DNA from: Amoebophrya sp. A120
Taxonomy: Eukaryota; Protista; Dinoflagellata
Assembly (NCBI GenBank): GCA_905178155.1
Contig: CAJINV010000023.1
Location: 754,775 to 804,412 of the forward strand
Direction: 5' to 3'
Length of the DNA stretch: 49,638 bases
Below, piece after piece: positions 1 to 43,569 of this stretch (the first letter of the stretch is position 1; each line of letters opens with the position of its first letter). A model generated the notes under the pieces. It was not told where the DNA came from, ran no database searches, and saw only the letters and a list, made by a program, of their open reading frames with translations. Both the position numbers and the translations under genes were made by a program.

Positions 1-1960
1 GGCAGGCCGACCCGCGACTTGCTCGCGCTCTCTATTGTTTTCATTCTATGCGCTTATTGGCATCGGCTTTCGCGAATCTCTCGAGTTACGCCATTGTGTT
101 CCTGGAATTCGGCCATCAGAAGCACGCATGGCGTCGGACATCAGACCCCATTTCCTGGGACAATAGCTCCCGAGCGGCTAGCTAAGCAGGCCCGGGCACC
201 TGGCGAGGACAGAGAAAAAATGAAGGATTGCCAAGCCCACTCGCCGAAGCAAGCGAATCGCATAGGAGGCTGGCCGCGTCTTCCGCTGTCAGGACCGTGT
301 TCAATTTGGTACATAGGTGCGCACACGCATGGCGGCGATGGACAGCTGCTTCATAAGCTTTACCCCTGCACCATCCATATTTTTGAGCCAGTGGGCCCCT
401 TCGTGGACAGTCTGAAGAAAGTTTGGGGCGCAAAGGGGCTGACTCGCGTTGAGTTCCACACCTTTGGCCTGGCCGCAAAAGCCCGACGAATCAGCAATGT
501 CGTTTACGACTCCGGTGATGGATCATCAACATTCAGCCTGGGCGAATCGAGCGGCGGCATGTACGGCGCCGCACCCGGCCAGAAAACTACAGACTTGGAG
601 TTGCGATCCGTAGCAGATGTGTGGCAAGCACTGCAGCAAAAAGGTCCGAAGGGCAGCGCTGTCGTGGACTTCATCTTCATGAATTGCGAGGGGTGCGAGT
701 ACGAGGTACTGCCTGCGCTCAGCAGCGCCAACTTACTTCCACAAGTGAAGTTCATACAGTGGCGACCCCACGAAAATTTCGAAGAGCTTCCCAGCATTCC
801 GGAAACCTACTGCCGCATTGAAAATTTTCTCAAGGAGTCGCATCGCATTACGGAGCGAGACGGCGGGGTTGGAAAGCGCATTAACTGGGAACGTTGGCGC
901 AGTACTGCAGAGGCTGGCCCTGCCACCAGCATCAGCCTGACGGCCGCACCATCTGCCACGAGTGCCAGACCGGCCAGCGTGGACACGACAAAGCTGCGAA
1001 GCACAATGCAAACCTGTGAGGCCCGCTCGCCCAAGCAAGCGAATCGCATAGGAGGCTGGCCGCGACTTCCTCTGTCGGGACCGTGCTCAATTTGGTACAT
1101 AGGTGCGCACACGCATGGCGGCGATGTATCACATCGAAACGTTGTGTCCCTGCCCCGTTCACAGAAATAAGCGGCGACATTTGTATACGCACATTTCTCC
1201 AAAAAGCAAAACGACCGCGCGCGGCAAAGTATCTTGGTTATGTGATCACAAGAACACCTTATGCAAATCACAGAACCAATGGCGCATGAAAAAATGCAAA
1301 CTGCGCTCGCTTTCGTTTTGGTTGTGATTCCTGGAATAGTTATGAGGACCCTTTTCGGTGTGATATCACGGACAGCTGCTTCATAAGCTTTACCCCTGCA
1401 CCATCCATATTTTTGAGCCAGTGGGCCCATTCGTGGACAGTCTGAAGAAAGTTTGGGGCGCAAAGGGGCTGACTCGCGTTGAGTTCCACACCTTTGGCCT
1501 GGCCGCGAAAGCCCGACGAATCAGCAATGTCGTCTACGACTCCGGGGATGGATCATCAACATTCAGTCTGGGCGAATCGAGCGGCGGCATGTACGGTGCC
1601 GCACCTGGCAAGAAAACTACAGACTTGGAGTTGCGATCCGTAGCAGATGTGTGGCAAGACCTGCAGCAAAAAGGTCCGAAGGGCAGCGCTGTCGTGGACT
1701 TCATCTTCATGAATTGTGAGGGGTGCGAGTACGAGGTACTCCCTGCGCTCAGCAGCGCCAACCTACTTCCACAAGTGAAGTTCATACAGTGGCGACCCCA
1801 CGAAAATTTCGAAGAGCTTCCCACCATTCCGGAAACCTACTGCCGCATTGAAAGTTTTCTCAAGGAGTCGCATCGCATTACGGAGCGAGACGGCGGGGTT
1901 GGGAAGCGCATTAACTGGGAACGTTGGCGCGTTAACGGCGGACCTACCTCTGTGAAATAA
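1..1960 (+). CDS. FkbM-family SAM methyltransferase with two tandem near-identical domains and N-terminal membrane anchor (5' end probably outside window); one non-canonical intron ~1127-1370
   Basis: Motifs WYIGAHTHG, IHIFEP, FGLA and FMNCEGCEYEVL occur twice; frame 1 is open from base 1; removing 244 nt joins ORF 19..1170 to ORF 1421..1960; hydrophobic LLALSIVFILCAYW. Confidence 0.85.
226..1930 (+). repeat. Intragenic direct duplication (~226-901 vs ~1014-1930)
   Basis: Near-identical nucleotide sequence; only copy 2 contains the 244-nt insertion. Confidence 0.95.
1127..1365. mobile_element. TIR introner (no family mate in window)
   Basis: TIR TATCACATCGAAA/TTTCGGTGTGATA; flanking 5-mers CGATG/TCACG; absent from the paralogous repeat; element+5=244 restores frame. 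Confidence 0.9.
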
Positions 1961-2874
1961 GTAGTCGCAGCGAATGTAGTCGTGCGCATTTTTACTTCGC
2001 GCTGAGCTAGACTCTCCTTCATCATGTTCACATCTACTTCAAATAAACATATTAACTCACTCGCCTTAGTGTTTGCCCACCGGCGCAGCCCTGGGAACTG
2101 GTTTTTAAGTATGCTTATTCTCGTTACACGCGGAGGAGCCATAACATATGTAGCAACAAGACTGCTTCTATAATCCAAGCGGGCGTCCTCCCCAATATCC
2201 TGGCACTGCGCGCAGTTGTGAAGAATCTTCTACGATTCTAGTATAATATCTGATGTGTAGTGCGTCGAGTTGGCCTGGTTCTTCCTCGATTCTCTCGCGA
2301 TGTGGTTGGTTGCATCCCGTGCAAGGTCATGCGTTTGCGCCTGCTCGTGTGAAAAAAGGAGGCCCCCACCTCCAGGGGAGGCCGAAGCCATGAACTGCTC
2401 GCTTCTGCTTCTAGGATCGATCTGCGTATTTTTGAAAGAGAAGAGTTATTTACTTCCCTAGCTGGTTTTTTCATGAGTGACGGGAAAAGAAGCAGCGGCC
2501 CTGGTCATTTTTTACCTCTGTAGCTTTTGAAGGCGTGCGCGTGCTAACCACCTCCAGCAAGTCCATTTTTACCAACACACGCAAAAAGATCTGGCACACA
2601 AATGCAAAGATAGAATCTTCGGCCTGCACTACGCGGGACACAATTGTCGTGCCTGCAGTTTAGCAGGTGTGGTGGAATTGTATGTAATCTCGGAACTTCA
2701 ATTCTATCACTAGGACGCTCGGCGCTACGCTGATAAGACCACCTCCTATTCGCAGTATCCCGAGAAAAAGCTGCTCCTCGTGGTGGCGCTGCGCTTGATA
2801 AAACTCGATGGCATGCAAGCAGCATTCGCCTAGGAAGTCTTTGCGCAGCCTCGGTCGAAGCGCGGTATCGTAAA

Positions 2875-5800
2875 ATGTCTGCGCCGCTGGTGGCTTCAGC
2901 GCAAGCGCACGCCGGTTTGGTAAGATGGTCACTGCTGTGGGTTTTGCTCGAGGCCGTCTTCCTTGCCTTGTTTTGGGGTGCGAGATACTTGACGATCAGC
3001 ACAGACAACCTCGCGCACTTAAGGCGGGTGACGAAAATAAACCGTAGTTATGTGACAAATCCACCAGGACCTCCCGCTGCGCCAACACCAACATCAAAAA
3101 GCAAACAGGAGACCGCAACAAAAACAAACGCCGGCGGTGCCGGAATAAATTCCCGCCCCGAGCGGCAGCGCAGAAGCCCTACTGAACTCCGCGGAGCCCA
3201 CGAAACTTTGCGGCAGCGTCTATTACCGTCCTTGGACGCGTGCTCCCTTTCTATCGTGAGAAAAAATCCCCCCTCCCCATATCGAAAACGAAATCTGTGA
3301 TGCTGTATTTGAGCCTCAAGTCGACTTGTAATGCTAGAAGGCCAAGAGACGCAGCTGTGGCCTCGTTTGCAGGCAATTTGTCACGCTGTTTCCCACTTCC
3401 AGCTGCCCCCTGTCATGCTGAAGATGCAAGGCTTTCCCACGCCAACCAGCGCTACAGTCCGCATCTTTTCCCTTCTAGCATGACACAGCTGATTTGTGAC
3501 CGCAAATCTGCGTCACAAATTTCTAGTTTAAGTATGGGGTGGGGGGATTTTTCCTTTTGATACTTTCCGTCGGATTTTCGAAGAAGACAAACGAGGGGAA
3601 CAAGACATCATCTTCGAAGCTGATCTCCCCCGATGTGGTTTCTGGAAAATTGCCGACGACGCATGCGTTCTGGCGGTCGCGAGCGGACTGCACTGCCCTG
3701 CAGTTCTGCCACGATCAGCGTCCCTCTCCACCCGAGTGTGACCTGTGTGTGGTCATTGGGCAATTTGTGGAGAAGGATCGCCTCTATTCGCAACGAATAT
3801 GCCGTGGCCGGTTTACGGGGGGGTCGTCCGCTATGGGGGTGTCAGGATCGTCGAAATCGACAAAGTAGAAATAATCTGTCATGCACAAAATGCGACACAG
3901 AGGGTGCCTCTATTGCAGGGGATGGAAAGGAGGCTGATTTTAGTCCTGCTAAGGGTCAAGAGTTGGGCTGCTGACTAGCACGACAGCAGGGAGCTCCTTT
4001 ACTTACCCTAAACAGCATGACAGATGACTCGCTTCCGGCGCGGGGAAAATTTGCCATGCGCCGACTATAAGCCCTGGGTCCAACTGGAGGTATCGCTTTT
4101 ATGCATTACAAGTTTTTCGTTTTTGTCGATTTCGCTTCTGACGCTTCCATATCCGCGTGGCAGGATCCGGTTCATTTGGGCGACTTCTCGGACCAGGCAG
4201 TGCCCGCACGGTATTGTGAGGAAAAATCCCCCATCCCCATACCAAAGCGGGATACTTCTGAAAATTTGTGATGCTGATTTGAGACCACAAATCGTTTCTG
4301 TATTGCAAGCAGGCAAATCCAAAAACCTGGCCGCGTTCTGCAGGTAATTTGTCATGCTGTATGGCCTACGGAGGAAATGCCTGCCTTGCTAGGCGCCTAC
4401 ACCAAAACGCACCTAGTCCCGCTTTGTACTTACTTGCCTGCACTCCTCTCCTGCAAGACAAAGCCGACTCGTGTACAGAAGTCCCGCATCACAGATTTCC
4501 ATTTCGACATGGGGAGGAAGGATTTTTCCTTTTGGTACACGGATCACCTTCAACATGAGCGGGTGGCTGGATTTCCGGGTGAATCCTCTGAACTGGGGCC
4601 ATTTCCTTCGCGGCAACTTGGGATTCGGCAACGCACTCCTGAAAGGAATCGACGCCCTTCCGTGCGTATCAAATGCAAATATCGATCTGCGTCTGGAAGA
4701 TTGCAAGGTTTGTCATGCATATTTCGCATGAGCTATGATGCCTGTAATGCATGACCGAGCATCACAAATTTTTTGCGGGTATCTAGATGTCTATTCCGCA
4801 TGACAAATTCCCGCTCCGGAGCAAAAACTGGACGCCTCGTCTTGCTGCTCATGCAATACAGATTTTTTTAGATTTCAAAAATAGCATCACAAGTTGCATT
4901 CTTCCAGACCCAGACACTTTTGCAATCCATAGTGCGAGGTTCGTGGTCCCGAGGTGGCCTACAACAACTGGTGGACTATGTTGGCGAAGCGCAACATATC
5001 CTGTGCAAAAACGTCCCCACCCCATAGTCAAATTGGTAAATCTGCAACACAAATCTCCAAGTTTTGGAAGTTTTGCAGGACAAATTTTCATCTGTAGTGT
5101 AGGGCTGTTTAGCAAGTGCAGCTGCATGAGAAAGCCAGCTTCTCATCCTGTTTCCAGCATTGCAAAGTCCAAAACACGATTGAAAAGGCCTCTCATGCGC
5201 ATTACAAATGTTCCTGTCATTGCACATTTGCACGACAACTATGGGGTGGGGACGTTTTTACTCGGGATACAACAACACAAAGTGTGACCAGGCTAAAAAG
5301 GACAATCGCCTGGCCTCGATCGAAGTAGGCGTGGATCCGGAACTTTCAAAATTGTTTCCGGACAACGCGACGAACAAAGTTTTTTCTTTTCCAAATGAGG
5401 CGCGCGTCCAATATCAGAATGAAAAATCCCCCCTCCCCATACTCAAACTAGAAATTTGTGATGCAGATTTGTGGTCACAAATCAGCTTTGTCATGCTAGA
5501 AAGGGAAAGATGCGGACTGTAGTGCTGGTTGGCGTGGGAATAAGCCTGTGCGTCTTCAGCATAACAGGTAGCAACTCGAGGCGCGAAACAGCATGACAAA
5601 TTGCCTGCAAACGAGGCCACAGCTGCGTCTCTTGGCCTTCTAGCATTACAAGTCGACTTGTGTACTCAAATACAGCATAACAAATTTCGTTTTCGATATG
5701 GTGAGGGGGGATTTTTCCTTTTGATATCCAAGCACAGCTTGCTACGGGGATGACGTGGTCGAGAACCATCCGACTTGGCGGCGCGCCGTTCAATATGGAT

Positions 5801-8800
5801 TGCAAAAATGTCTGGGTCTGGAAGAATGCCAGACTTGTCATGCAGGTTTCCCATGACCCATGAGGTGTGTGGTATGTAGGACATAGCATGACAGATTCTA
5901 CTGTGAGAGTTCTATCACGCCTATCCTGCATGAGAAACTGCCTCTCGATTAGGTCCAAAGTGGACAGCTTTTGGTAATCATGCAACACAGATTTTTCCAT
6001 GATTTTTCAGATTTAGCATGACAAGGTGCTTCTTTCCAGACCCAGACACTTTTGCATTTGATATTCAAGTACGACGACCAACCTGACTACATCACGTTCA
6101 TTCGGAGAAAAGGGCACCGGCAAATTGAGGGCTGGAAGATTATCGCAGATCTTGCGAAAACCTTTGCCGCTTCCCTCGGTATGGAGTACAAAGAGGTATT
6201 CATGGAAGAGAAAACACCAGACGAGCACGCCGCAATCTCACGCGGCTCCTGCGTGGTGCTGATGGGCATGGGGGCGGGTCAGTACACCCTCGAGATGATG
6301 CAGCCAGGCACATTATCCTGTGTAAAAACGTACCCACACCAGAGTCAGGATGGGGATTTTGCAACACAAACCTAGGAGTTTTGTGAGTCACGCATGACAA
6401 GTTGCAGGCTGTATTGTAGTGCAGTTTAGCAAGGGAAGCCGCATAACAAATCCACCTCCTCATCCTGTCCACAGCATCACAAATTCCAAAACACGATTGG
6501 AAATGGCTCTCATGGGGATGCGCATTACAAATCTTCCTGTAACTGCAAATCTGCATTACAACTCTGGTGTGGGTACGTTTTTACTCAGGATACACATTCA
6601 TGGTCTCCATAGATCCCGTGGATTTTCCCTGGAACCAGTACACAAGGTCCTACGCGTATCAAAAGAAAAAAGTTCGTCACGATCACTCATGGGCATTTTT
6701 GCAATACAAAAAATGCGTGTCATGCGGAAACATGCACTACAGCCGAACTTCATACGGGATTTCCTTTAGTGTTTCTGCAATACAGGCAAAAGCTGTGATG
6801 CTAAAAAAATTTGTAATGCAGAGCCTCCAAGTTAGTGAGTGTGACAAACTTTTTTCTCTCCATAACGCGATGTCCAGGGGGCTCACGTATATTGAGTCCG
6901 TGGGTTACAGCAAATACAAAGAACTGCATCTGTACGGCTTCCCCAATCCGGGCAACATTAGAAATTTGGGCCGGGACCCTGTCAAGCGTGAGATCGAGAA
7001 CATTTTCACAGCCATTCGACACGAGCTGCCAGGTTCTCCTTGTCGAACGAAAACAAAAACGACGAGACGCACATCTTCAACCACCGGAGGAATGAGCCGA
7101 GAGCTAAAGACCGGCTCAGCGTCAGCAGCAGTCGCTGCACACGACCCCGGGCGCCCGCTCTGGGCCCGAAACCACGGCAAATCACTAGAGCGCGCACGCA
7201 GCACCGACACAAAAGACTGCGTCGCGGCGCACTTGGGCAAATGGCGCGTGAATAAGACAGCCACGCCTTCGGACGCGCACCTAAACTGCATCGGACGCCT
7301 TTTCGGCTACGACGATCGCATTCACCCGATCGAGTGCGATCTTTGCCGTGGTATCGCGAGGAATCATTTCCAGGCCGACAAGCTCTACCACTTGCGGTAC
7401 TGCAGTGCGTGGTATTCGGAAGCAACCCAGGCAGCGTGGAGAGAGTTAGCTACTGGCGTCGGGTTCAACAAAACGGCCGGGGCCGCGAGGGCGCTACTGG
7501 AAAATAAGCCACAGGTTGTTGTGGACCGGCCCATATGGATTGTAAAAATGTCTGGGTCTGGAAGGATGTAACCTGTGATGCGCATTTCAGAACACACAAA
7601 AATCTCTCATGCATGGGTAGCAAAAGCTGCCCACTTTCTGTCACCAAAATGAGGGATTTGTCATGCGGGTTCGGCATTGCGGAAGCTTCTCGAAACCTGT
7701 GATGCTAGAGCTTCCATGCCAGACCTCCCGTGTCATGCAGAAACAGCATGACTCTTCCAGACCCAGACATTTTTACATTTGATAGCCCACGCAGGTAGAA
7801 ATTTTTGGGACTATGAAGCGTGAAGACATGGAGCCGGGCGATTTTGTTGGGGGACCACTTGTATCCAGTGCAAATATAATGTGTGGGTCTGGAAGGCTAC
7901 AACTTGTCATGCAGATTTTACATGGCCCGCGACGTCTGTGATGTATTCGCTAGAAGCGTCACAGATGTTCTGAGTGCTCTTTGATGCCGATCCCGCATGA
8001 GAACAAATGTCCTGCTCACATAACAAAAACTAGATTTCTCCTGCTGCTCAGGCAATCCAGATATTTTTGGAAAAATCCAAGAGCAGCATGACAAGTTCCA
8101 CCTTTCCAGACCCAGACACCACGACATGTTTGCATTTGATAACTTGGGTATGTAGCCGCGGTGCTGTACTCGGGACGGGTCTTCAGTCCGTGCGCAATGA
8201 TCGTCAAGGGCAGCGCGGCAAAGTTCGAAACTTGGCTCCGCATGGTGTTTTTGCGGGACCCGGGTCGTGGCGACACTGCGAAAGCCACGCCCTGTCCGGC
8301 GGGCGCTGCAACGCTGAAAATAGACTTGACAAACTGGGACTCCGCAGAAATGGCGATGGCATACGAAGCCAGGAGGTGGGCGCGCAACGGCCATGCTGTT
8401 GGTGCACAAGTGTAGTGCAGGGAAAATTATTCTCCATCTCGTCATACAACTACTCAAAAGCACAACATTCCGAGTGCGCGATCTGTTAATCATAATCACA
8501 CGACAAATGTCGACTTGCATTGCTAAAAAATCAACAAGATACGTCAGCACACCTGCGGCCTCATTTATTGCAGGCTATGTCTCATGCTATACTTCGCGGC
8601 TGTGTAGAAGTTGCTGCTTCTCATACTGAAGACGCGAAGGTTCTTTATCACGCCAACCAGCCAGCACTACGATTCGCATTTTTATTTCCTTCGTAGCATG
8701 ACAACTTTGCGTCCTCGATGATCACAAACCATGCTACATAAATTTCATGCGAAACATGGCGAGGTCGAGTTGTTTTTGATTTTGATAAAATGCTTCCTTA

Positions 8801-10319
8801 TCTGATTAGCATTCCTGCACCGGAGGGACCCCGCCGCGAGCTGGCGGCAAGTGAGCACGAAGGCAGGACAGGTGATGACCGACGGCAGGCAAAGGCAACA
8901 CTGCCTAAAACGCTGGTGTTTGTGCACGCGGACGGATCCTATTCGGGTAAACAAAAAGGTGCGCAGGCAGCTGCTACAGCACTGAATAGTACTGCGCTGC
9001 CGCGCTTAGCGAAAAAGCTGGGACTCTCGTACAAGGTCCTAGATCTTGGCAGCGCGCAGAAGTCTTCGAAGCTTGCGAGCGCAGCGACACTGGCCGGCTC
9101 GCTTGCTTCCGCGTGCGTTATCGTTGGGGAAATAAATCCCCCCTGCCAATACGCAAGAGAGGACTTGTGATGCTTCATTTGTGGTGTCTACAATATAGGT
9201 TTGCTTGCTGTGTGGGACTACAGGCACGGGTCGTGTCCTGTTGTAGGAACTTAGTGTGGCCGATCGATCCTCTGCTCTGCAGGCCCAGCAGCATTTTTTC
9301 GAAGCGCTTGCTTGATGCGGCGGAGTCTGTGGAGTTGCCATCTTCTTGCAAGACGGAGTAGAACTACATCTGTTGCCACAAATGGGCATCGCTCTCAGTA
9401 TGGGGACAGGGGTGGATCTTCCCTTACGATATGCGTTCTCGTTTCCCTAGTGGGTCCCGGGCAGGGGTTATTTTCGATTGCCAAGCCCGGCACGTTCGCA
9501 GTTTCCATCAGCCCAACGGACTGGGTCTACAACGAATGGGCCCGCTCCCGAGCATATGCATTGCAAACATGTCTGGGTCTCCTGGGCTTGTGATGCGAGA
9601 ATTATCGGATGCCGCGACCAAAAATATCCGTACTGCATGAAGAACCCTAAACCCTAAACCCTAGACTGGCTTGCTTTTTTGCCGTGCAAATAGAGAGCAA
9701 TTTTGCAAGCGATGTACGACAGAATCTGTAAGGAAATTGTTCCTAAAGCTTGGCATCCCGTCGTGCCGACGTTTCAAAAGGAGCCGCTGCGTCTTTCCAG
9801 GACGTCGACTCAGCAACACGAATTCGCTGCATCTTTCCGGACCCAGACATGTTTTCAGTGGATAGAGCAATCGCGCGCGGCTTGCATTATCTCGAGCTTT
9901 CCGAGTCCATCTTCTACTCCGCAGTGACGAAAGAGGAGCAGCTACCATTTGTGAAAACGTGCCCACACTATAGCCAAGTCTGGAACTTTTACTCCGCAAG
10001 ACAAATCCAGAACTTTTGGGAGTCGTCGCGCATGATAAGTTTCGACTTCAGTGTGGTCATGCCTAGCTTTAGACCAGCTGCAGAACAAACTCAGCCTCTG
10101 CCAGCGACTAGTTCGCGAGATGAAATTTCCAAACAGGACTAGAAAACGGTGAGAAATAATTTTACGACTTTGCAAATACGCATGACAAGAAATATGGGGT
10201 GGGTAAGTTTTTAGACAGAATAGGAGATTTGGGGACGGGACCGCGAGATAAATGCAGGGGAAATCGCCGCTCTGGAAAGCTTTCTGCTCGCTGAGATGCC
10301 TCATTCAGAGGCCTGCTAA
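2875..10319 (+). CDS. Type II membrane protein with two tandem GT61-like glycosyltransferase domains; 16 exons, 15 non-canonical introns
   Basis: TM WSLLWVLLEAVFLALFW; reconstructed NWGHFLRGNL, FIRRKGHRQI, VVLMGMGAGQYTLEMMQPGTFMVSIDP, YAMSRGLTY; second repeat ECDLC...VSLVGPGQGLFSIAKPGTFAVSISP...AIARGLHY; stop TAA 10317-10319. Confidence 0.8.
3252..3562. mobile_element. TIR introner, family A
   Basis: TATC..AAAAATCCCCCCTCCCCATA termini; perfect 5-mer CTTTC; 316 nt restores frame. Confidence 0.95.
3832..4151. mobile_element. TIR introner, family D
   Basis: TATGG..GTCAG..CGAAATCGACAAA TIR; perfect TCCGC; 325 nt restores frame. Confidence 0.9.
4212..4537. mobile_element. TIR introner, family A
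   Basis: Perfect CACGG; 331 nt restores frame. Confidence 0.93.
4667..4931. mobile_element. TIR introner, family B
   Basis: TATCAAATGCAAA..TCTGGAAG / CTTCCAGACCCAGAC termini; perfect GTGCG; 270 nt. Confidence 0.93.
4997..5269. mobile_element. TIR introner, family C
   Basis: TATCCTG..AAAAACGTCCCCACCCCATAG TIR; perfect CAACA; 278 nt. Confidence 0.95.
5412..5726. mobile_element. TIR introner, family A, opposite orientation to 3252-3562
   Basis: Perfect TCCAA; 320 nt; interior is the reverse complement of 3252-3562. Confidence 0.95.
5794..6063. mobile_element. TIR introner, family B, opposite orientation to 4667-4931
   Basis: Perfect TTCAA; 275 nt. Confidence 0.95.
6314..6592. mobile_element. 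TIR introner, family C
   Basis: Perfect CACAT; 284 nt. Confidence 0.95.
6657..6864. mobile_element. TIR introner, stop-free in frame
   Basis: Perfect ACGCG; 213 nt; ORF 6567..7571 reads through it. Confidence 0.88.
7534..7784. mobile_element. TIR introner, family B
   Basis: Perfect GCCCA; 256 nt. Confidence 0.93.
7862..8141. mobile_element. TIR introner, family B
   Basis: Perfect ACTTG; 285 nt. Confidence 0.93.
8413..8787. mobile_element. Degenerate TIR introner, family A-like
   Basis: AAGTG/AAATG; 380 nt joins ORF 8161 to ORF 8790. Confidence 0.8.
9119..9431. mobile_element. TIR introner, family A-like
   Basis: Perfect TGCGT; 318 nt. Confidence 0.9.
9555..9864. mobile_element. TIR introner, family B, containing a telomeric tract
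   Basis: Perfect GAGCA; 315 nt. Confidence 0.9.
9645..9663 (-). repeat. Interstitial telomere-type repeat (TTTAGGG, ~2.7 units)
   Basis: CCCTAAACCCTAAACCCTA on + strand. Confidence 0.7.
9943..10222. mobile_element. TIR introner, family C (decayed)
   Basis: GCAGC/GGAGA; 285 nt gives last exon WGRDREINAGEI...EAC*. Confidence 0.82.
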
Positions 10320-11104
10320 GTCCTCTGCTCCTTCGTCATTGATGATTCTTGCGTAGCGAATGATCTTCGGCGTCGCTAGCCAGAAATGCAGGTTTTCGGA
10401 GCACGACGCCAATCGAGGTTGAACGCTAGATGGACACCTACCGGGACGCCGCCGGGAAACCTTCACCATCCACGACCGTGCGCGCACAAAGTAAGCAGTC
10501 CTTGCTGGGTTTATGTGTTACGGCGCAGTTTGGCGCTCAAGCGTTTCATGGTGACCATCACCATCAACTGTTTGCTTATTGTCCAAGCGCAGCACCTTGC
10601 TAGGCGCAAGAAAGTATCTTAAGAGAGAGTCTATCTATAGATAGCGGAGGATTCTGCAGCGCACTATTTGGTTGGTAGAATAACGAATCAAGGCGCTCCG
10701 AGAGGCGCGGAGTTGCTATGCTGTCTAAGGTTTGGCAGTCGCGGACGCATTTTCTGTATCATCTTAAGTCTGTTTTTCTCTGCTTGAAGTTGTGCGGTAA
10801 GGAAAGAATTTCAACAAGCGAAGGAGCGTCGAAGGGCAACGCTTCTACTTTCAAGGTCATGTTGCTGGGACCTCGATGGAAATGCAAAAATATTGCGCAG
10901 GGAACGAAAATATTTACGTGAGAAGTCGAATAATCTCCGCGGGGACGGGTGTGAGAAAAGGTCTGAACTTTGCGCGGACGCCTGGCTGAATCATTTGCGT
11001 TCTTGTTGGTGTCTTCAATCTTGACTTCGCTTCATCTCTACTGGGCGAGGCTTACTAGTATTGCTAGCGTGGCAAAATGATTTGGCTACCTACGCCTGGA
11101 CTCG

Positions 11105-32194: not shown

Positions 32195-32258
32195 CAGTTT
32201 TTGGAACAGCAATTCCCGGTGACGCAAGCAAAGATCCCAATGCAGGCTTCCGATGCGA

Positions 32259-34015: not shown

Positions 34016-34273
34016 TACACATTGCAAATACGTCTGGATCTGAAACACTCCAGCTTGTCATGGTAAATCTGGACCGCGAAAATATCTGTGTTGCATGAAC
34101 GCCAAAAGTCGTGAGCTTTTTGCTATGGAAGCTGCGACCTTTCCATGCGGACTGGGCATGAGCTTGCTCTTGCAAAATCTGTGATGCTTCTGTGTGCATC
34201 CGAGATAAATAATCCACGAGATGCATGACAAACACGCACAGTATTCCAGACCCAGACAAAATTGCAATGGATG
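34016..34273. mobile_element. TIR element, family B (host frame unresolved)
   Basis: AAGGA/AAGCA. Confidence 0.8.
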
Positions 34274-34330
34274 AAGCAGTTTCCGCTGTGTCAGCCTGTA
34301 TGGTTTAAGTAATCCTTTTTCTCTTTTGAT

Positions 34331-34596
34331 TATCAACTGCAAATATGTCTGGGTCAGGAAGAATCCAAAATTGTGATGCGTGTTGCAGATCATACAAAGA
34401 CTTGTGTTGCATGACCAGCAAAGGATGCCCCCTTTTGGCCATGCTGAGAGGGCATTTCTCATGTGGATAGGCATCATAAAGGGTCTACAGAACCTGTGCT
34501 GCTAGGCACTGCATTCCAGACTTGAGGAAGCTTCTTGAAAACTGCATGAGAAATCTCGGAATCTTCCAGGAGACCCAGTCATATTTTCATTTGATA
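34331..34596. mobile_element. TIR element, family B (host frame unresolved)
   Basis: TTGAT/TTGAA. Confidence 0.8.
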
Positions 34597-34601
34597 TTGA
34601 A

Positions 34602-36219
34602 CAGGTCGTGAAAACTCTGCCGAAGAAGAACCCAGTGCCCTGCTCGGGAATAAATCGTCGAAATCTACTGCGCTGGTGCATCAGCACCACGTGCGCGACT
34701 CCAAACATTATCAAAAAAAGAACATCGCCGGCGCAGCCACTTTTTATGTGTGTTTACTTGTTGGCCATCTACCGAACGCGTCCTGCGCGAAAATTCATCA
34801 CAGTCAAGCTTATTTCACTGTTTCCAATGGAAAGAAGCAATTGTCATGCACGCCGGGTCCTCATTTCCATACTTTTTGCAAGGAAGTTGTGACTGCGATG
34901 CATTTTTTTTTTTGATAAGCGGACCAACATGTCGGGCGTCAGTGCCGGGCACTGCCACATCGTGACTGGCAACGAGAAGAACTTCAAACCGGTGGCGCAG
35001 TATAAAACAGCAAAAGAAGTCATGGACGATCCAGCTGTCCAGGAGCAACGCAAGAACCGTATCGACGTGTTGATATCAAATGCAAACATATTCGGACCTG
35101 GAAAACTGTCATGCTCTTATGTGTGTGAGCGACATCAAACTACTGACTGCAGTACCTGGTCCAGCACGGGGACTGGCACTCGCTGAATAGTTCTTATTTT
35201 GTTGAGCGTGGGGCGCATAGGACAGCGTGATTCTGCATGACGACGGAGACGTACTATTCCGCAAGAAGATTCATCTACAAAGCTCATCTTCACGAGCATG
35301 GAGTTATTCCAGAAATTCGGCATTACATCAAGTTTTGCAATTATTTTCCAGACCCGGACATGTTTGCAATGCATAACTGAACAACAAAAACGGCAAAAAA
35401 AAACTGCACGTTGATATTACAATGAAACGTCCCCCATGCCCGTACTCAATCGCGACCATGAAGAGCGTGGTCATGCTACAAGGAAGAGATACGGAATGTC
35501 GTGTTGGCTGGCGTGGGAACGCCTTGCGTCTCCAGCATGACAAGAAGCTACTGGAGGCGGGAGACAGGATGTCGACAAATTGGCTGCAAGCGAGGCTGCA
35601 ACCGTGTCTCTCGTCCTTCTAGCAGTCATGGGTAATTTGAACGCAAATCCAGCATTACAAATTTCTTTTTCACTACGGATAGGGGGGATTTTTCCTAACA
35701 ATAATTCACTTCGTGCTGGACGACGAATTGGTTCAATTCATTAGGTATGCTTTGCAAATACGTCTCGATCTGGATTTGTGATGCGGAAGTTGCGAGACGC
35801 CAAGATCTGTATTGCATCAACGGGACTGAACAGTTTTTTTTTTCGTGCTGGCAGACAGTATGCCATGCTAGATACGAATCAACTTGCAAGAACACCGGAA
35901 AAACTTGTAATGCGTTCACGCCGTACAAAAGACTGCTTTGTCATGCAAGGCTCAGCGTGCCTTTTATCCAGACCGAGAAATATTTCTATTTGATACGCGG
36001 GAAAATGCGGTTTGGGAAAAAGAGATGCTTGCCAGTAACAAAACGAAAACGAAGACGAACGGCAATAAAAACCGAGAACTTCTGGCCAACAAAGACCCAA
36101 TCGTCCGCTTGAGCCTCGCTCTGGACTTTTGGGGGTACGAGATCGATCTCGAATTCCAGCCGGACGGTATGCAAACACTTTCAAGAGTTGGCTTTTCTCT
36201 AAGCGCCTACGTGTTGTAA
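34602..36219 (+). CDS. Hypothetical protein with four older introners; 5' end unresolved
   Basis: Element+5 excision gives ...HVRDSKH-TNMSGV...RIDVL-NNKNGKKKLHV-DFVLDDELVQFIR-ENAVWEK...LALDFWGYE...*. Confidence 0.55.
34709..34917. mobile_element. Decayed TIR introner
   Basis: TATCAAAAAAA/TTTTTTTGATA; 5-mers largely lost (AACAT/AGCGG); 214 nt restores frame. Confidence 0.7.
35074..35375. mobile_element. TIR introner, family B
   Basis: GTTGA/ACTGA; 307 nt. Confidence 0.85.
35415..35703. mobile_element. TIR introner, family A
   Basis: GTTGA/ATTCA; 294 nt. Confidence 0.85.
35746..35995. mobile_element. TIR introner, family B-like
   Basis: TTAGG/CGCGG; 255 nt joins to ORF 35938. Confidence 0.78.
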
Positions 36220-36326
36220 GACTTTTGATTTATCATTATTTGCGTGGTGCTATGCGAATGCGCTTGCATCTTTTCCACTGTTCCGGCGAGTAGCCGCGTT
36301 GTGTATGAATATCTCTCTCACCTCCC

Positions 36327-37450
36327 CCAGGTGACGGAAGTTGCCTATACCGTGCGATAGCGGAACTGGTGTACGACTGGCCAGATTTCTGGTCCAAAGT
36401 GCCGCAATCCAAGAAGAACACGCGCGAGGAACACCGCTTGCAGGATCTTTACTACTCTCTGCGGCAGCTGGTAGATTTGCGTTTCATTTTCCGCATGAAT
36501 GTGATGAAGTGCAAAAGTTGCCCACTTCTGTGCCTTCGCTTTTACAGTTACCTTGTTCATGCTCGGAGTGGATGCCGAGTCGCGACCTAATGCCAAGAGA
36601 TATGAAAAACGACAGGTCGCGACTTACTACCAACACAACCGCGCTTATTATGAGTCGCTCGGCCTCTTCCCCGCGTTGGGTACTATATCGAAAGACAAAA
36701 GCGATATCATTACACAGCGCGCCGAAAACTCCACACTTTTACTGCCCTGAAGAGTGGCACTTTTTGGCGTGCCGGGAAGCCGTCCCGTTTTCCCTGTGCG
36801 ACGTTTTAGCACTTCGCCCTGCAGGTAGCGAGCGGCTGCTGCCGTTGTATGTTAAACTGGCTAGCTAAGGAGGCATGCGGTTTGGGTGTCTGTTCCGGAT
36901 TGGCAGTCCAGCACGAAGGTTGCCGGCGTGACGCCTCCGGGCCCCACCTCGTGGGGCCAGCGGGCTGCCGGGCCTGAGATTAAAAAGCACGCTCTTGACG
37001 TGGTCCGCGATATCGGGCAGCTGGCCTCCTTAGCTAGAGTAGTCAACTGAAGCAACCGTACGTAGCTGCTTACAGACGCTCTTTTTTCATGGAAAACAAA
37101 GCAAAGCGCAACGGACACGACCGCCAGCAAAATGCTCAAAAGTATTTTAGTCCAGTTCTTGCACCATGAAAAAAACGGCATTTTCGGCGCGATGTGTAAC
37201 TGCGTCGCTTTTTTCTTTCGATGTACCACCCTGGACGAGCATTGCAGGAAGGTCGCGGACGAGACAAACCACGAATGGGCGGACGAGCACGATATTTTGG
37301 CCCTCGGCGAGGCGCTGGGGTTGGAGAAGATCCTACGCGCTGCAGTTCTGCCCTAGCCCTGCAGGCTCAGCAATCCCGAGCACGATTGTACGCCTCCTAT
37401 TTCTGTATGGCAATCGTTGCGCGTCGCTCTCGACGGGTCGCGGGTCATGA
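36327..37450 (+). CDS. OTU-like cysteine protease (deubiquitinase fold), exon structure unresolved, possibly inactive or a pseudogene
   Basis: GDGSCLYRAIAELVY (Cys box); TLDEHCRKV...EWADEHDILALGEALGL; LLFLYGNRCASL where HY is expected; pyrimidine-rich CAG acceptor-like sites. Confidence 0.6.
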
Positions 37451-38574
37451 TTGCCCCATAACCCCCATCCACGAGCGCAGTGCTGAGCCTTGGACTAGGG
37501 CAAGTTCTTTCGACGTGATAGCCAACGATCATGCACGATAAGGGTAAGGAGCCACGTGTTTACAATCTCGGGACGAATAATCTGGTTACCCGGCCGCCAC
37601 GGTATCGCTCGGAAAAAGAACCACGCCCATAGATTATTCTAAGCAAGTTGCGGCGGTTGTGTAGTGTGATGGACAGCCGCCTTCTCGGCGCTCAGCGAGC
37701 ACTGCAAGCCTATCAGTTGCCCGGCTTTTATATTATAAAAGCCGGGCATGAGCAAAGGACTTAAACGTAGAAGTGGCTCAAGGAAGTGCGATAGTTTTCG
37801 CGTGCTTTTTTTGCCTCTTCTAAGATTACAAGCAAAACGCATGCTATGGCCGCGCTTTTGGGTGGCCGGTTTGGAACCTAGCCACCCCTCCGCCGCGGCC
37901 CCACTTTTCAATGGCCCGCTTGGGCCAGGGTTGCCGGTGGGCTCCGCATATTGAAGAGGGTGAGAACTTCTAGAGTTATGGGCGCCGCCGACAGGTGGCA
38001 TCTAGGGGGCCAAAAATTGCTGCATGTGTGTGTTGCGGATGAGGGAGTGTTGAAGTGGGCGCTTCAACTTTCCCTCGATGAGGGAAAGGCGAAGTGGCCA
38101 CCTCAACTCTCCTTCTATAAAAGTGGCCACTTCAACTTTCCTCCAATGGAGGGAAGTCGAAACAGCCATCGCCACACTTTTGCGCTCCTTTCTGCGTTAC
38201 AAATTGCCGACCATGGCGGCAATTTGTAACGCAGAAATGAAGGACAGCAGCAAGCTCGTCGCATTTTCTCCTTTTGTTCTTCTTTTCTGCATCTGTAATG
38301 CAGAAATGAAGGGAAGGAGTAGAGTTTTTGAAATGGCTATTGTTGAAACGGCCACTTCAACAACTCCGCATTTCTTTTGTCCTTCATTTCTGCACTAGAA
38401 ATTGCCCAGCTTCTGGTCTACAAATTGCCACTACTGGCCTACTGTACAGAAGGCAACAGGCTTGCGGTGCTCGTTTGCTTTCGAATCAATGCAAAAAAGC
38501 GATTGGCTGCGTATGGGGTGAATGAATGCAGCGACCCAAAAAATAAAAAATTGCATGATAGAGGCAACTTGCAA

Positions 38575-38682
38575 TATCGTATTGGCGTGTTTTTGTATTG
38601 GATACGCTAGAAACCATCCAGAAATACCTGCCGGTCGACCCCGACAGCATGCCGAGAAAGATCGTTATCGCCAATTACGGTA
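38575..38682. mobile_element. Miniature TIR element
   Basis: TATCGTATTGGCG/CGCCAATTACGGTA; TGCAA/TGTAA. Confidence 0.6.
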
Positions 38683-39417
38683 TGTAAGACTAATATCTGG
38701 GGCCAGCTTGTGCTGCCTTTGGTCTTTTGAAATTGTCACTGAATGCGTGGAGTGTCGTCTCACTGGTCCTGGCCCTGTGCCAACGGAGAGACGAAACGAA
38801 AAAAATCTTGAAATAAGAAAAAAAGGAGCGCTAGCGTCGACTAACACTACAACAGGGGAGGTGCACTACGTACTGCTGAGACATGTCTTACCCGATTCGA
38901 AGCCCGACCTCGGCAACATCGTCAAGCGCGTAGCCGGGAAAATGAAGAAAAAGAGTGCCGCTCGTGGTGGGGCTACGTCTTCTGCCTCGGGCAAGAAGAC
39001 CGGAATCATATCAAAGTGAAAAGCTCCCCACCTCCAGAAGTAAGAAACGTTTCTGAACTTACCTAGGCGCGAGACTGTTGATCTATGCATGCAATGACTG
39101 GAAGTAGTCGCCGCCCATCACGAAGCTCTTGATTTTCTTTTCCGCACCATCGCAAATTTGTGTTGCTGGCATATGCAGGACCATGAGAAGGGTTCCCGTA
39201 GTTGTGAAATATTGCAACTCAAAGGACGCTTGTCCTTCCTGGGGTAGGGGGCTTTTCAATAGGATAAGCGAAGAAGTCCCAGTCCAAGGTACTACCATAT
39301 GGATCTCACTGGCGCAATTCGGAATGTTCAAGAAGAACGCCGTACGTTTGGTATTGTTTCCCTGCCCGTCATTCAAGCAGGACGCATGTTGTTGTAGCAT
39401 TCTCTTCTAATAGTATA

Positions 39418-40159
39418 TTGCGCAAGACTGTCGCAAACGCAAAACTACAGAACCCCAGTTCGAAAAACGGTTCTTCCAAGGGCAAAAAAATGGCAACGAT
39501 GAAGGCTCCGGCGACGAAGGGGAAAGCGGCTGGCACGACGAATACCACGCAAAGTGTGAAGACCAAGCGTAAAAAACAAACCGGCAAGAAGAACTCCCCC
39601 AGTGTGCAGACAACGAAGAAGTCGAGTGTGCAGACAACGAAGAAGTCGAGTGTGCAGACGTCCAACAAGTCGAGTGTGGCTCCGAAGTCGTCAAAGGGTG
39701 TGAAGATGGGAACTGGGCAGAAGATATCCAACGCAAATATGTCGTGGCCCCTAGCAATGCACACTGGTGACTTGCTGACATTCTAAACTCAAAAAAACTG
39801 TCACGCGTGGGCCGAAAGTTGGCAAATTTGTACTGAAAGAGGGGACCTCTCATGCCCAATAGGCATCGAAATGTCCTTTCTTTAAAGAGAACGCGTTGCA
39901 CTGTAACCTGCTTTCCAGGAGACCTGTTGGGGCAGGAGCATACAGAATCAACACAATGGCATGTTGCAGTCAGTGTTCCAGGCACACACGACATATTTCC
40001 AGTGCATAGACCAAGAAGTCCTCCGGCGGTGGGAAGAAACCAACCGGCGCTGCTCCGAAATCGACAAAAAAAACCGGTGGAAACAACACGAAGAAAATGA
40101 ACAAGATGAAGAGCGCAAAAAATGTAAAAAAGACCGACGGCAAGAGAAAGATGCAGTGA
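39418..40159 (+). CDS. Highly basic Lys/Ser/Thr-rich low-complexity C-terminal region; upstream exon(s) probably ~38690-39008
   Basis: ORF 39418 joined across 39725-40013 to KKSSGGGKKPTG...KRKMQ*. Confidence 0.55.
39601..39677 (+). repeat. 24-bp coding minisatellite, ~3 units (SVQTTKKS)
   Basis: AGTGTGCAGACAACGAAGAAGTCG tandem. Confidence 0.9.
39725..40008. mobile_element. TIR introner, family B-like
   Basis: AAATATGTCGTG/CACGACATATTT; GAAGA/GACCA; 289 nt restores the Lys-rich frame. Confidence 0.8.
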
Positions 40160-41365
40160 GGTGCATGGTGGTGACATGTTTTTCCAGTGCGAAAAAGTGG
40201 TGAAGTTGATCATGGTCGAGTATTTTGATTTACTCCTCTACTGCTCCTACCGACTGTAGTTCAAATGTGCTCTTTCCTGATTTGCTAAGCCCACACAAAA
40301 ATGTTGGCTCATCGTGGCTGTAGGCTCCTTTCCTTTTTAACTATGTGCTACTGATTTGATGCAGACACATTCACTATTCGACTGACTATTTTCACGGTTT
40401 TGCTTTCGATAGCATTTTGCTGCGGGCGATACCTGGCCAAACGCTCTGATGATATGAGACATGATTTTTTTGAAGCTAAAAGCTTTCGAAAGAATACGAC
40501 AAGCAGCTTCTGACTAGCGGTTGTTGCATTTTCTTGCGCCACAAATTTTGAATGTGAACGACTATTCCCCTGCTCGACCGAACTCCCGACGCGGGTCTTT
40601 GTAACCTGCCCGTGTTCCTTCTTGTCGGACCGATGATGATCGAGATCAGTTTACAGCCTGGGTAATGGTAAATGCCAGTGCTGGTAAAACTGATTCTTCT
40701 TGATGTTCAACTTCCTTGATCGCAACCGATCAATGTTGTGGTGCTCGCAAGTGTATAGAATCATCCGAAAAGTGGAAACGGTAAAGCTATCGCTATGGCA
40801 CCGAAGTTTTTTTTTTTGTTTTGTAAGTGCTCGGACCTAGCGGCAAAAGTGTATTGCTCAAGTCCAAAGCTTCGTGCTTTTTTCTTGGTTTCTCGAGAAG
40901 ACTGTTTTTTTGAATGGACGTTGCGGCACTTTCTGAGTGTATGAGCGCGGGGAATCTCCTGTGTAAAAACATATCCCCAGCTGCCCTAGAACCAAATTGC
41001 GATGTCTCATATACTAATAGACTTTAGCACAAGAAACTTCGGCGCTGTAGCATGGTCGTGCAGCTTACCGGTGTCAGCGGCTACTAATGGCCACATCGCG
41101 GTCTGACTTTGAGAGTCTGAGCAGATCGTCGCATATCTTGAAACACGATTATAAAATGCTCCCATGCGTTGACCCGCGACGCACTCACTGGGCGTGCAAA
41201 CACGCATAAGAACTGCTGGGCTGGCGCGTCGGGTTGCCACAGGATGGAGAACAACACTTCCTGACGTGGAAGTCTCTTCATAGACGTCCAGTATTTGGTT
41301 CTCACTTGGCGCCGGTGATTGTTGTGGAGTTTCGTCTGCTTGTTGTTGCTTTACACTTCGGCACG

Positions 41366-43569
41366 ATGGGGGGCCCCAATTTCTTGGAAAAAGTCAAGCT
41401 CCACGTGCAGTACGCGTATGTAGCGGTTAAGGACAAGAGGACGAACGTTTCCGGCAGAGCAGTCGAGGAAGCTCTGCGCATCCTACTTGAGCTTGCGGAG
41501 AAGTATGGACATTTTATCGACAACGTGGAGCCGTTCACATCGCTGCAGAAAGTAGCAGGCGCTAGTGCCGTTCATCAAAAGAATAAGAAGGACCTTCTTC
41601 GAAGTCAAAGCTGCCCACCTCAGGCGTCTTCGCATGTCAGCGGCAAGCGACCCGGGAACAAGTTTCAGCCAGGGCGCCGCGACGGAGATAACAGCGCGAA
41701 GCTAGCGCGTGAGCAACCACAGCTACAAAAGCAGAACGCGGAGGAGCCAGCCCGTCCGCGCAGACTTTCAACCAACAAAAGAATGGCGATCAACGCCAGC
41801 CCAGAACAAGGCGGCGGCAGTTGTTCCGTCGACCTTGGAGCTAATGCTGCAGAGCAGAAAGAGGATGAGGACGCGCTCCCAGAGACGAAGGCGAGCGCTA
41901 AGGCAGTTTCCGGTCGTGGGGCCAGTGCACAAGCAGTACCAAAAGCAAAGCCGTCCGACCTCGCCTTGGTGGCAGTGCGTCACAACGGAATATCTGCTGA
42001 AAATATGATGTCTGGGTCCCGAAGGTTGCAGCGAGTTTCATCCTTGAATAGCAGAAACGCATAAAGTTATGCGCTGCATTTAGCTCATGCAAAACGAAGG
42101 GCAGCTTGTTTGTCATGGGTAGCTGTGCACTGAGGTCTGCTTAAAACAGAAGAAGTGCGCTTTGTTCGTTATTGCAACTCTCCAGACTGAGACACGTTCG
42201 CACTTGATACGGGAGAGCCGCTTCCTCGAAGAAATTACGGAAAGTGGCATCAGCGGAGCATTTCACCGCTGGCGAAATTGGTGACGACCGGGATATGAAG
42301 CCGAAGGAAACGATGACGATGAGCAGTATGAAGGTGAGTAAGAGCGGCGGCATCTTTTCCGGGAAAAACCACGCACCACATGCCTCCTCCGAACCGAAAG
42401 CGGGAAGCGCGGGAGTATCAAATGATAACAACGCCGCCAACTCTCGCGCAGATAAAGCGGCAAAACAGGCCGGCGAAAAGTCGCCCGCTGCAGTGGCGGC
42501 ACCCTCGAAGCTGGAGAACGTCGGCGAGCTGAATCCTGCTGCGGTCGATGACGATGGAAATCTGGAAGACGCCGTATCCAGGCTGTTGGCGTTTATGGGG
42601 CCGCTGCTATCCTGTGTAAAAACGTCTCCACCGCAGAACTGTCATGCAGGTTTACGAAGACAGGATCATTTGTGATGCGCATCCCCAAGATAGGCAATTC
42701 TAGTACTCGCGTTGGGAAATTTGTAATGCTGTAAACAGCCTATAAGGAGATGGATTTGTATAATGCGGCTGTCCTTGCTAAATCGCATTACCCTACGGAC
42801 TGCACTTTATCATGCGTGAATCCCACAAATTCTAGGTTTGTGCTGCAAAGCCACCATCTTGGGTCTGGAGTGGAGACGTTCTTCCTCAGGATAGCTGCTG
42901 AACATGAGCAACAGCCAAAAGCAGCACGGAATTGAGGTTGAGAAGAAGTGCAGGAAGTGGCTAGCAGACACGGCAGCGAAGATGCTTAACCGAGTGCGGC
43001 TTGTATCCAAAATAAAAGCACGCCCGTGCCATATACAACAGGCCGAAAGACGAACGCTCTGAGCCCGATGTATATATCCAGGCTTACAGGTCGCATTCGT
43101 CGTCCTTGTCGCGCCTGTTGATTTTGATGGAGACTGGCACCCAATGAAGGCAAGATGGTCGAGAATGGGATGCCCGCGTCCTTCTCTTTTTCAGGAGCAA
43201 CATGTCTACCCACCCACATTCGAAGGATGGCGCTTCGTATTTGTCGCCGCGGGCTGCTTTTGTTTTGGATACGCCGACGAAGATGGAGAGGACAGGGAGG
43301 AACAGATACTCTGCGACGAAACATCCCCGGAAGGGGTGCTGGCAAGCTCTTTCAAGACGGTGGCGGGTTTGCGGGTGCTCCAGTCGCGGGGCAGCGGATC
43401 TTTTCCGGACCACTGCTTCCGAGACGAGGTCCACGAGCTGACCCCGCTCGCCGTTCTGCAGGTTGTGCCGGGGCTATCCATCAGACAAATCCAGCAGCAA
43501 GCAGCTGGAGCAAACGGGCCTGCGAGGTGCGCGCCGTCGAGGCGCGCCCGTTGTCGCTCGCCTTCGTAA
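41366..43569 (+). CDS. Hypothetical protein with three introners; may be the N-terminal part of the downstream kinase-like gene
   Basis: ORFs 41234, 42244 and 43144 join in frame after element+5 excision; ATG 41366. Confidence 0.6.
41991..42209. mobile_element. TIR introner, family B-like
   Basis: CGGAA/CGGGA; 224 nt. Confidence 0.82.
42608..42893. mobile_element. TIR introner, family C, reverse orientation
   Basis: Perfect GCTGC; 291 nt. Confidence 0.92.
43004..43271. mobile_element. TIR introner
   Basis: TATCCAAAA.AAAAGCA TIR; GCTTG/CGCCG; 273 nt. Confidence 0.82.

Follow-up and report, generated by a model that had tools for sequence, protein, structure and literature searches.

A fixed cut register and direction-dependent end bases of introner elements in Amoebophrya sp. 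A120

Introners and comparable introns

Non-canonical introns make up more than 60% of the A120 total, and the published account left their boundaries and mechanism open. In that account, the introners of Amoebophrya sp. A120 have an inverted repeat (TAT, 7 nt, AAA), direct repeats of 3-5 nt and non-canonical ends, occur in many families and as singletons, and are described as having variable, signature-free splice sites (Farhat et al. 2021, PMC7789003). Among the nine top non-canonical classes compared from Table S4 of that work, T is the second base in 9/9 for A120, and TT is found in 9/9 for A25. A published survey described a near-complete A120 spliceosome with U2, U4, U5 and U6, while U1 was not detected.

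The elements analyzed here lie in a 49,638-nt stretch of an A120 contig (the window). They share with the introners of Farhat et al. the TAT-N7-AAA inverted repeat, border repeats within the 3-5 nt range, the organization in families and removal from transcripts without GT-AG ends. In contrast with that account (PMC7789003), the present elements show a 5-bp repeat, a single register and conserved bases that depend on direction. Base positions are counted below from the intron ends (+1, first base; -1, last base), and offsets from the start of the element.

Nonconventional introns of Euglena are alike in several respects: their ends are inverted, direct repeats mask the exact junction, a base-paired triplet sits at fixed spacers and GT-AG is absent (PMC12501133). 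However, the triplet is UAU/AUA here and CAG/CUG in Euglena, the spacers are 1 and 4 instead of 3 and 5-6, the first exon base follows no purine rule (37/58 are purines) and, as in spliceosomal donors, U is kept at +2; the lineages are unrelated. MITE-derived introns of Fritillaria borealis resemble the present elements in transposon origin, inverted repeats and duplications and are reported to be spliceosomal following U2AF and snRNA changes (PMC11282704, PMC13326754). In Fritillaria, though, the ends AG-AC and AG-AT are preferred and U1 is kept, whereas the A120 elements leave +1, -2 and -1 unconstrained, and no U1 was detected in A120. Finally, introns of Yarrowia, Trichomonas and Giardia also end a short, fixed number of bases after a conserved A (PMC2483917); we computed from the same source a branch A at -6 to -8 for these three and Candida guilliermondii. 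Unlike those introns, which have a strong ACTAAC and a terminal AG, the A120 elements have neither, and a branch at -7 is a candidate.

Elements and element-bearing genes of the window

Between positions 1127 and 43271, 59 elements with inverted ends of the TA(T)-N7-AAA type were catalogued, and three more outside this range (43475, 44499 and 45582) were added by way of deposited protein P0050. The initial annotation had counted about 55 elements, bounded mostly by TAT...ATA and a 5-bp duplication, in at least five families plus singletons; its count is slightly exceeded, and five large families, common to the window and other contigs, were indeed seen alongside small families and singletons. 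Elements of the window occur in both orientations. An automatic scan, with a matrix trained on the window's own elements, returned 54 pairs, 50 of them already catalogued, whereas each of 10 resamples that preserved dinucleotides gave 0-1 pairs. Two of the scan candidates, 11127-11427 and 40181-40411, were excluded because unbroken contigs span them nearly and wholly, respectively; candidates 38292-38401 and 38483-38604 were also excluded.

A perfect 5-mer flanks 30/59 window elements, and at its register no element (0/59) has a perfect 3-, 4-, 6- or 7-mer. At other loci, 251/335 elements have a perfect 5-mer, in a set pre-filtered for at least 3/5 matches. No Rfam match was found in the window, and among 8 proteins or ORFs searched none matched a transposase. 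Three exons are 100% identical to deposited Amoebophrya sp. A120 proteins, all encoded on one contig of 808,777 nt. Because of this identity, and with matching repeat features, the window elements are on sequence grounds the introners published by Farhat et al. (2021), as their earlier assignment to Amoebophrya introners had it; the elements are already known, and the splice code is apparently new.

Table 1. Elements, element-bearing genes and canonical introns in the window
Feature	Coordinates	Strand	Remarks
Element in second FkbM-like methyltransferase repeat, ORF 1-1957	1127-1365	+	Decayed repeat CGATG/TCACG
1043-codon ORF	2737-10316	+	Broken by 15 elements
1043-codon ORF, elements 1-8	3252-3562, 3832-4151, 4212-4537, 4667-4931, 4997-5269, 5412-5726, 5794-6063, 6314-6592	+	
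1043-codon ORF, elements 9-15	6657-6864, 7534-7784, 7862-8141, 8413-8787, 9119-9431, 9555-9864, 9943-10222	+	
Gene of deposited protein P0048	11410-18069	+	11 elements; weak SGNH/NXPE-like match
P0048 gene, elements 1-6	12013-12366, 12462-12745, 12789-14384 (nested insert), 14831-15109, 15448-15800, 15851-16022	+	12462-12745 discordant, CCTCG/AGTCG, deposited model cuts element+5 at offset -7 to -5; 15851-16022 with 3' triplet broken (AAG for ATA), perfect 5-mer
P0048 gene, elements 7-11	16063-16243, 16328-16609, 16853-17174, 17239-17395, 17430-17762	+	
Lone 5' element end	18116-18160	+	No partner found
402-codon ORF	18851-21730	+	5 elements; basis: frame only
402-codon ORF, elements	19053-19372, 19427-19750, 19767-20099, 20303-20646, 20877-21204	+	
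DUF268 gene (deposited protein P0001)	22463-26549	+	9 elements; joints and protein match
DUF268 gene, elements 1-5	22663-22864, 23299-23551, 23588-23912, 24049-24382, 24773-25104	+	
DUF268 gene, elements 6-9	25192-25519, 25534-25870, 25976-26290, 26356-26468	+	
692-codon ORF	27597-30315	+	Weak glycosyltransferase family 2 match; elements 28090-28401, 28463-28783
Lone 3' element end	30435-30490	+	Kept in contigs X4 record 7, X6 record 18
Intron	30576-30855	+	Exactly fixed: 1 nt + element 30577-30851 + 4 nt; GTACT/GGAGG; X4 record 7
Elements	32042-32194, 32259-32481	+	Joint seen for the first; loose end, compatible with removal, for the second
Elements	34016-34273, 34331-34596	+	Outside long ORFs; absent among joints listed
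Intron	34708-34921	+	Exactly fixed: 1 nt + element 34709-34917 + 4 nt; AACAT/AGCGG; ends TT..CG
Elements	35074-35375, 35415-35703, 35746-35995, 36686-37223	+	Joint for each
Canonical GT-AG intron	36167-36330	+	Missing from contigs that lack elements
Canonical GT-AG intron	36471-36615	+	Missing from contigs that lack elements
Elements	39009-39266, 39725-40008	+	Joints
Canonical intron	39289-39450	+	Same stretch as elements 39009 and 39725
Element	40955-41246	+	TCT start
P0050 gene, elements	41991-42209, 42608-42893, 43004-43271	+	
Element (via P0050)	43475-44332	+	GGGGC/GAGAT; offsets -3 to -1 allowed; inner stem displaced 4 nt
Element (via P0050)	44499-45112	+	Offsets -2 to 0 allowed
Element (via P0050)	45582-45863	+	CGCCG/AGCAA; deposited residues given by offset -1 only

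The first FkbM-like repeat of ORF 1-1957 is an intronless copy, that is an empty site. It matches the site at 1127 if the left repeat is retained, in line with its earlier use as a guide to the 5-nt rule. In the P0048 gene, the reading frame and the deposited protein both fit removal of element+5 at 15851. Beyond this gene, the lone 5' end at 18116 is kept in contig X4 record 18 (17797-18488). A micro-exon of 9 nt separates elements 25192 and 25534 of the DUF268 gene.

Removal of the elements and its register

Junctions were taken from contigs X3-X6 of one sample, whose label as RNA is a guess; 15 of 29 junctions are covered, and contigs lose minor forms. From the raw RNA run X9 only 8 reads aligned, all of them partially, and they supplied no junction. 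In the DNA-like run X1, the 15 of 1143 joint rows considered were all paralog artefacts, so contig pieces were used instead.

At 15/15 resolved junctions, the likely-RNA contigs lack the element plus 5 nt. For 15 further elements, removal of exactly 5 nt in excess of each follows from summed length; in 2737-10316, the summed skip in record 10 of X3 and in record 16 of X4 is exactly element+5 per element. Deletion of element+5 places 54/59 elements inside + strand ORFs of at least 250 codons, compared with 15-30 for +3, +4, +6 and +7, which bears out the frame rule proposed in the initial annotation.

Conceivably these contigs are DNA with empty sites, the elements being eliminated from the DNA during part of the life cycle, as ciliate IESs are. 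The guessed label of X3-X6 and the dominance of paralogous elements in the joint table of X1 leave room for this. The X3-X6 contigs without elements, however, also lack three GT-AG introns, and X1 contigs cross element-exon borders (7967-9584 and 12759-14437), making removal at the DNA level highly improbable.

As to the position of the cuts, offset -1 is compatible with 15/15 junctions, offset 0 with 12/15 and offset -2 with 6/15. Offset -1 is forced at elements 34709 and 30577, and a contig piece ending at 12011 gives the same offset for element 12013. Since decayed duplications leave one register that fits all 15 junctions, the register is resolved: cuts fall 1 nt upstream and 4 nt downstream of the element, and the intron is N-TAT...ATA-NNNN. 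The fixed geometry claimed earlier was thus right, and comparison of junction offsets with the ends of the inverted repeats sharpens it to -1/+4. Removal had also been claimed for decayed repeats: AACAT/AGCGG (34709) is joined exactly in the X3-X6 contigs, and for GCTTG/CGCCG (43004) P0050 fits with 3-5 left letters retained. A GT-AG reading by sliding is possible at 1/15 joints.

The deposited proteins P0001 and P0050, which may share their RNA data with the contigs, agree with this register. P0001 shows 0 differences from the -1 model over 475 aa and 8 elements, compared with 1-6 differences for other registers, and the three later elements (43475, 44499 and 45582) all permit -1, which is the sole option for one of them. 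When codon likelihood and stop codons were used to test the register on 78 independent elements with decayed repeats, 41 agreements and 52 disagreements did not discriminate between registers.

The +5 length could nevertheless be general and -1 only the commonest of several offsets, in keeping with the published description of the sites as variable. P0048 departs from -1 at element 12462, and the same residues occur in its paralog P0049; moreover, -1 is forced as the sole solution by just four junctions (two contig joins, one piece end and one protein), with 15 of 29 joints considered. Yet none of the joints listed rules out -1, and the model at 12462 may be biased by transcripts of the close paralog. 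We therefore consider a mixture of offsets improbable.

Conserved bases, the terminal stem and the possible machinery

For the independent set, 457 distinct elements were reduced to 350 that were stranded with a positive coding score, and then to 335 by requiring at least 3/5 matches in the repeat and discarding one call that was probably false. The set excludes loci below 1500 nt as well as 9 records that are not part of the main assembly.

In contrast to U2-type introns, the elements lack GU/GC...AG ends; like them, they have U at +2 (393/394), the lone exception being a G-C donor. A at -7 is found in 390/394, the exceptions including 4212, a removed element. G at +1 (132/394) and terminal AG (25/394) are about at chance level, GT-AG is found in 6/394, and +1, -1 and -2 are unconstrained in the 394 elements; the signature is N1 UAH...AUR N4. 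Separately, the -1 base shows a weak tilt to C/G (14/16 in the window, 16/22 at other loci), noticed post hoc and left unused.

The two terminal triplets are conserved differently according to direction (interaction p 5e-4, strand-flip p 4e-4). Among the 335 independent stranded elements, deviants number 0 at +2 U compared with 9 at its pairing partner -5, and 10 at +4 compared with 3 at -7 A. Around -7 A, no flanking branch-point consensus is enriched, and U two bases before it shows no acceptor-side enrichment (150 vs 172 of 350). In the AAA/UUU run, 25 donor A-to-G changes compared with 7 acceptor U-to-C changes fit real pairing and a U-tract equally.

We lean towards the view that a divergent major spliceosome recognizes N-U-A together with the A at -7, disregarding G+1 and AG. 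A transposase acting in trans would insert the element and make the 5-bp duplication, and the left element end would contribute U-A to a GUA-type donor that lacks its G; all five canonical introns in the window start with GTA. The inverted repeats may help to approximate both ends, possibly replacing U1, and the 3' site would be picked a fixed 4 nt past the A-U-R triplet, AG not being required, with -7 A as candidate branch point. Insertion with an intact duplication would be silent in either orientation, since the mRNA keeps 4 nt of the left repeat together with 1 nt of the right one.

Alternatively, a separate non-spliceosomal machinery, either endonuclease plus ligase or an unknown euglenid-like complex, could bind the paired triplets and cut at a distance of 1 nt on their 5' side and 4 nt on their 3' side. 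Such a machinery amounts to the ruler of the initial annotation with some base-specific contacts. This reading would accommodate the freedom of +1, -1 and -2, a mean predicted pairing of 0.7-0.75 in the A/U run and about 0.6 in the terminal triplet, the U-G wobble kept in 13/15 informative first-pair changes and the retention of lone element ends in contigs. The tested code of Euglena is built in the same way, around a paired triplet whose 5' spacer is shorter than its 3' spacer (N3CDG...CH'GN5-6|R; PMC12501133), although this very signature is absent from A120 elements.

On the other hand, +2 U hardly ever varies and is in no case compensated, and the third pair is broken mainly on the donor side (A-C 11 vs G-U 4), the opposite of what G-U wobble tolerance would lead one to expect; no G-U/A-C bias is found at repeat positions 4-10 or 16-20. 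Moreover, terminal pairing is predicted to be at most 0.05 in 6/30 RNA-supported elements and, at a cut-off of 0.2, predicted terminal pairing is lacking in 82/386 folded elements. The inner stem of element 24773 has its best register displaced by 4 nt, and the cut is still at the TAT motif. We consider a separate machinery less likely than a spliceosome. The proposal that cut sites are set by stem distance, not by splice-site sequence, stands as regards fixed geometry; its strong form is not supported, given the asymmetric triplets, the 6/30 elements with almost no predicted terminal pairing and 24773.

Two further ideas were rejected. Inspection ruled out a bulge-helix-bulge substrate, as direct repeats do not let exon and intron pair. 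Compensation of a weak stem by a G+1 donor, suggested in the window (p 0.03), disappeared in 335 other elements (p 0.75).

Returning to the divergent spliceosome, a broader proposal can be put forward more tentatively. The A120 spliceosome, with no detectable U1, may have dropped both the terminal guanosines and AG and may recognize only N-U-A at the 5' end and an A at -7 that the transposon supplies, the inverted repeat serving as a complete splice code in both orientations across tens of thousands of introns; A25, with repeats starting TTA and TT-NN introns, may share the +2 U/+3 A code while drawing on another family of elements.

One register with defined conserved bases makes the branch site, the key bases and the need for snRNPs directly testable, and tens of thousands of A120 junctions could be re-annotated exactly. 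The register also accounts for the harmless flooding of genes by a transposon. If truly spliceosomal, removal of these elements would accept every base at positions +1, -2 and -1, a relaxation that goes further than those described in the literature compared here.

Known introner elements in the window

Elements were catalogued with a scan for TAT...ATA pairs, a matrix trained on those pairs and subsequent manual resolution, yielding 59 elements at 1127-43271 with a total of 18,119 bases. At their ends, seven variable bases separate TAT from an A run. The automatic scan found 54 pairs in the window; 10 resampled windows gave 0-1 apiece. A perfect flanking 5-mer is present at 30 of the 59 elements, while a perfect 3-, 4-, 6- or 7-mer repeat at the 5-mer register is present at none. 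Once each element is deleted together with 5 nt of flanking repeat (element+5), 54/59 fall inside plus-strand ORFs of at least 250 codons, compared to 15, 30, 17 and 30 upon deletion of +3, +4, +6 and +7, respectively. The elements proposed in the initial annotation, with TAT...ATA ends, a 5-bp repeat and a frame rejoined by element+5, are borne out.

Deposited Amoebophrya sp. A120 proteins, all on one contig, match three exons at 100% identity. Given this identity and the same TAT-N7-AAA motif in published introner elements (Farhat et al. 2021; PMC7789003), the window elements are already known. The accessible part of that paper reports no clear splicing signature, sites that vary relative to the hairpin, and a nearly complete spliceosome in which U1 was not detected. 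Register and conserved bases are not described in the accessible parts of PMC12130899, PMC11453091, PMC12005148 and PMC9860276 or in the literature searched, although Fig. 3 and S19-S25 of Farhat et al. may bear on the point. Gozashti et al. (2025) have 58 A120 rows in their dataset, and the 21 covered here show 2-5 nt duplications with a mixture of co-opt and carry calls; the other 37 may bear on novelty. The splice code of these known elements is apparently undescribed, its support here being the contigs of one sample.

Features of the window and their coordinates
Position	Feature	Observation
1-1957	FkbM-like methyltransferase domain, tandemly duplicated (below family cut-off)	element in second copy only
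9820-10320 / 30420-30950; 11160-11400 / 27570-27780	paralogous segments (by eye)	one with truncated element, lone 3' end retained
12789-14384	1.6-kb element	GC-rich insert of ~70-nt direct and inverted repeats
12965-13016; 14183-14234	52-nt duplication	flanks this insert
13341-14007	inside 1.6-kb element	depth zero in X3 and X4; covered by X1
18116	lone 5' end	kept in contigs
25525-25533	9-nt micro-exon between two elements	present in all four contig sets
26356-26468	113-nt near-perfect palindromic element	absent from contigs, kept in deposited model P0001
30490	lone 3' end	kept in contigs
36471-36615; 39289-39450; 45965-46429; 46782-46967	canonical introns ending A-rich + CAG	A-rich stretch, not pyrimidine tract, before CAG, A at -7: 4/5 canonical introns, sample too small for use
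37880-38450	short direct and inverted repeats	contig depth very low; two weak element-like candidates close by
47680-49638	tandem array of ~148-nt units	70-80% identity

Removal from transcripts and intron register

Contigs were compared for a DNA-like run (X1) and four runs from one sample (X3-X6) whose RNA label is a guess. X3-X6 are read as cDNA, because three GT-AG introns are missing from their contigs along with the elements, whereas X1 contigs continue across element borders; excision at the DNA level is highly improbable. At 2672-10959, where skips were summed over groups of 9, 3 and 3 elements, the totals amount to element+5 per element for all 15. At 23950-43400, where the 15 joints listed out of 29 resolve 14 elements and one further table adds a fifteenth, the skip is exactly element+5 at all 15 elements resolved. 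The contigs reveal presence only, not the usage frequency of alternative sites.

Decayed repeats limit how far a junction can slide and fix the cut. Starting the intron one base upstream of TAT (offset -1) is permitted at 15/15 junctions, offset 0 at 12 and offset -2 at 6; offset -1 is forced at elements 34709 and 30577. A piece end at 12011 likewise gives offset -1 for element 12013, via the tool's placement convention.

Deposited proteins, which may derive from the same RNA data as X3-X6, were also compared. P0001, from the DUF268 gene, shows no differences from the -1 model over 475 aa and eight elements, versus 1-6 for other registers; the ninth element of this gene is retained in P0001 and removed in contigs. 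P0050 exposed three uncatalogued elements, each element+5, permitting offsets of -3 to -1, -2 to 0 and -1 only. P0048, a protein with a weak SGNH/NXPE-like hit, disagrees: at element 12462 it can be fitted only with an offset of -7 to -5, and its paralog P0049 has identical residues there; this element is either a true exception or the P0048 model was pulled by paralog transcripts. A codon test of register at other loci leans neither way (41 agree, 52 disagree). A mixed register is unlikely. The intron is N-UAU...AUA-NNNN; with offset -1, the mRNA therefore keeps four left-repeat bases and one right-repeat base.

Conserved bases in independent elements

A metagenome scan yielded 94 loci, most of them contigs of one assembly, in which the window's element families recur at identities of up to 96% while the exons do not overlap those of the window. 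This assembly (L002-L093, for the most part JACKZZ01) represents an A120-like genome that could serve for studying insertion polymorphism. Strand was assigned by a codon model (51/54 held-out window elements correct), and filtering left 335 independent elements. Since families occur in both orientations, donor/acceptor differences reflect transcription-tied constraints.

With labels such as +2 and -7 presupposing the window register at these loci, +2 has 0 deviants and its counterpart -5 has 9; +4 has 10 and its counterpart -7 has 3 (p 5e-4 for the interaction, p 4e-4 by permutation of strand flips). This asymmetry was first noted in the window and then replicated in the 335 elements. U-G wobble could explain +2 versus -5, but +4 versus -7 runs against the wobble expectation. 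Among 394 elements, +2 has a single exception, a G-C, and -7 is non-A in four; +1, -2 and -1 are unconstrained. In the A/U run, donor A-to-G changes (25) outnumber acceptor U-to-C changes (7), a bias that fits pairing or a U tract and is absent at repeat positions 4-10 and 16-20. Table S4 of Farhat et al. (PMC7789003) gives, for each strain, the nine non-canonical classes that predominate: T is second in all nine of A120, and the A25 classes are all TT, A25 repeats starting TTA. This cross-check may carry bias from aligner placement inside repeats.

Candidate machinery

We consider it somewhat probable that a divergent U2-type spliceosome removes the elements. The near-invariant +2 U, then A, would act like a GTA donor start, and all five canonical window introns start GTA. 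The A at -7 is a candidate branch point; by our own arithmetic on the accessible part of PMC2483917, it lies within the fixed branch-point range of Yarrowia, Candida guilliermondii, Trichomonas and Giardia. No U2-type consensus was found around this A, and G+1 conferred no detectable advantage.

A separate, Euglena-like machinery is a less likely candidate, to which the same geometric form of Euglena introns, in the accessible part of PMC12501133, lends support. Against it, predicted terminal pairing, from folding across 300 nt that is rough, is at most 0.05 in 6/30 RNA-supported elements; at element 24773 the best inner register is displaced by 4 nt and the cut stays with TAT. For the divergent spliceosome, Fritillaria offers a precedent of adaptation to introns of this sort (review PMC11282704; PMC13326754, both as accessible). 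The removal mechanism of A120 elements is now open to direct testing.
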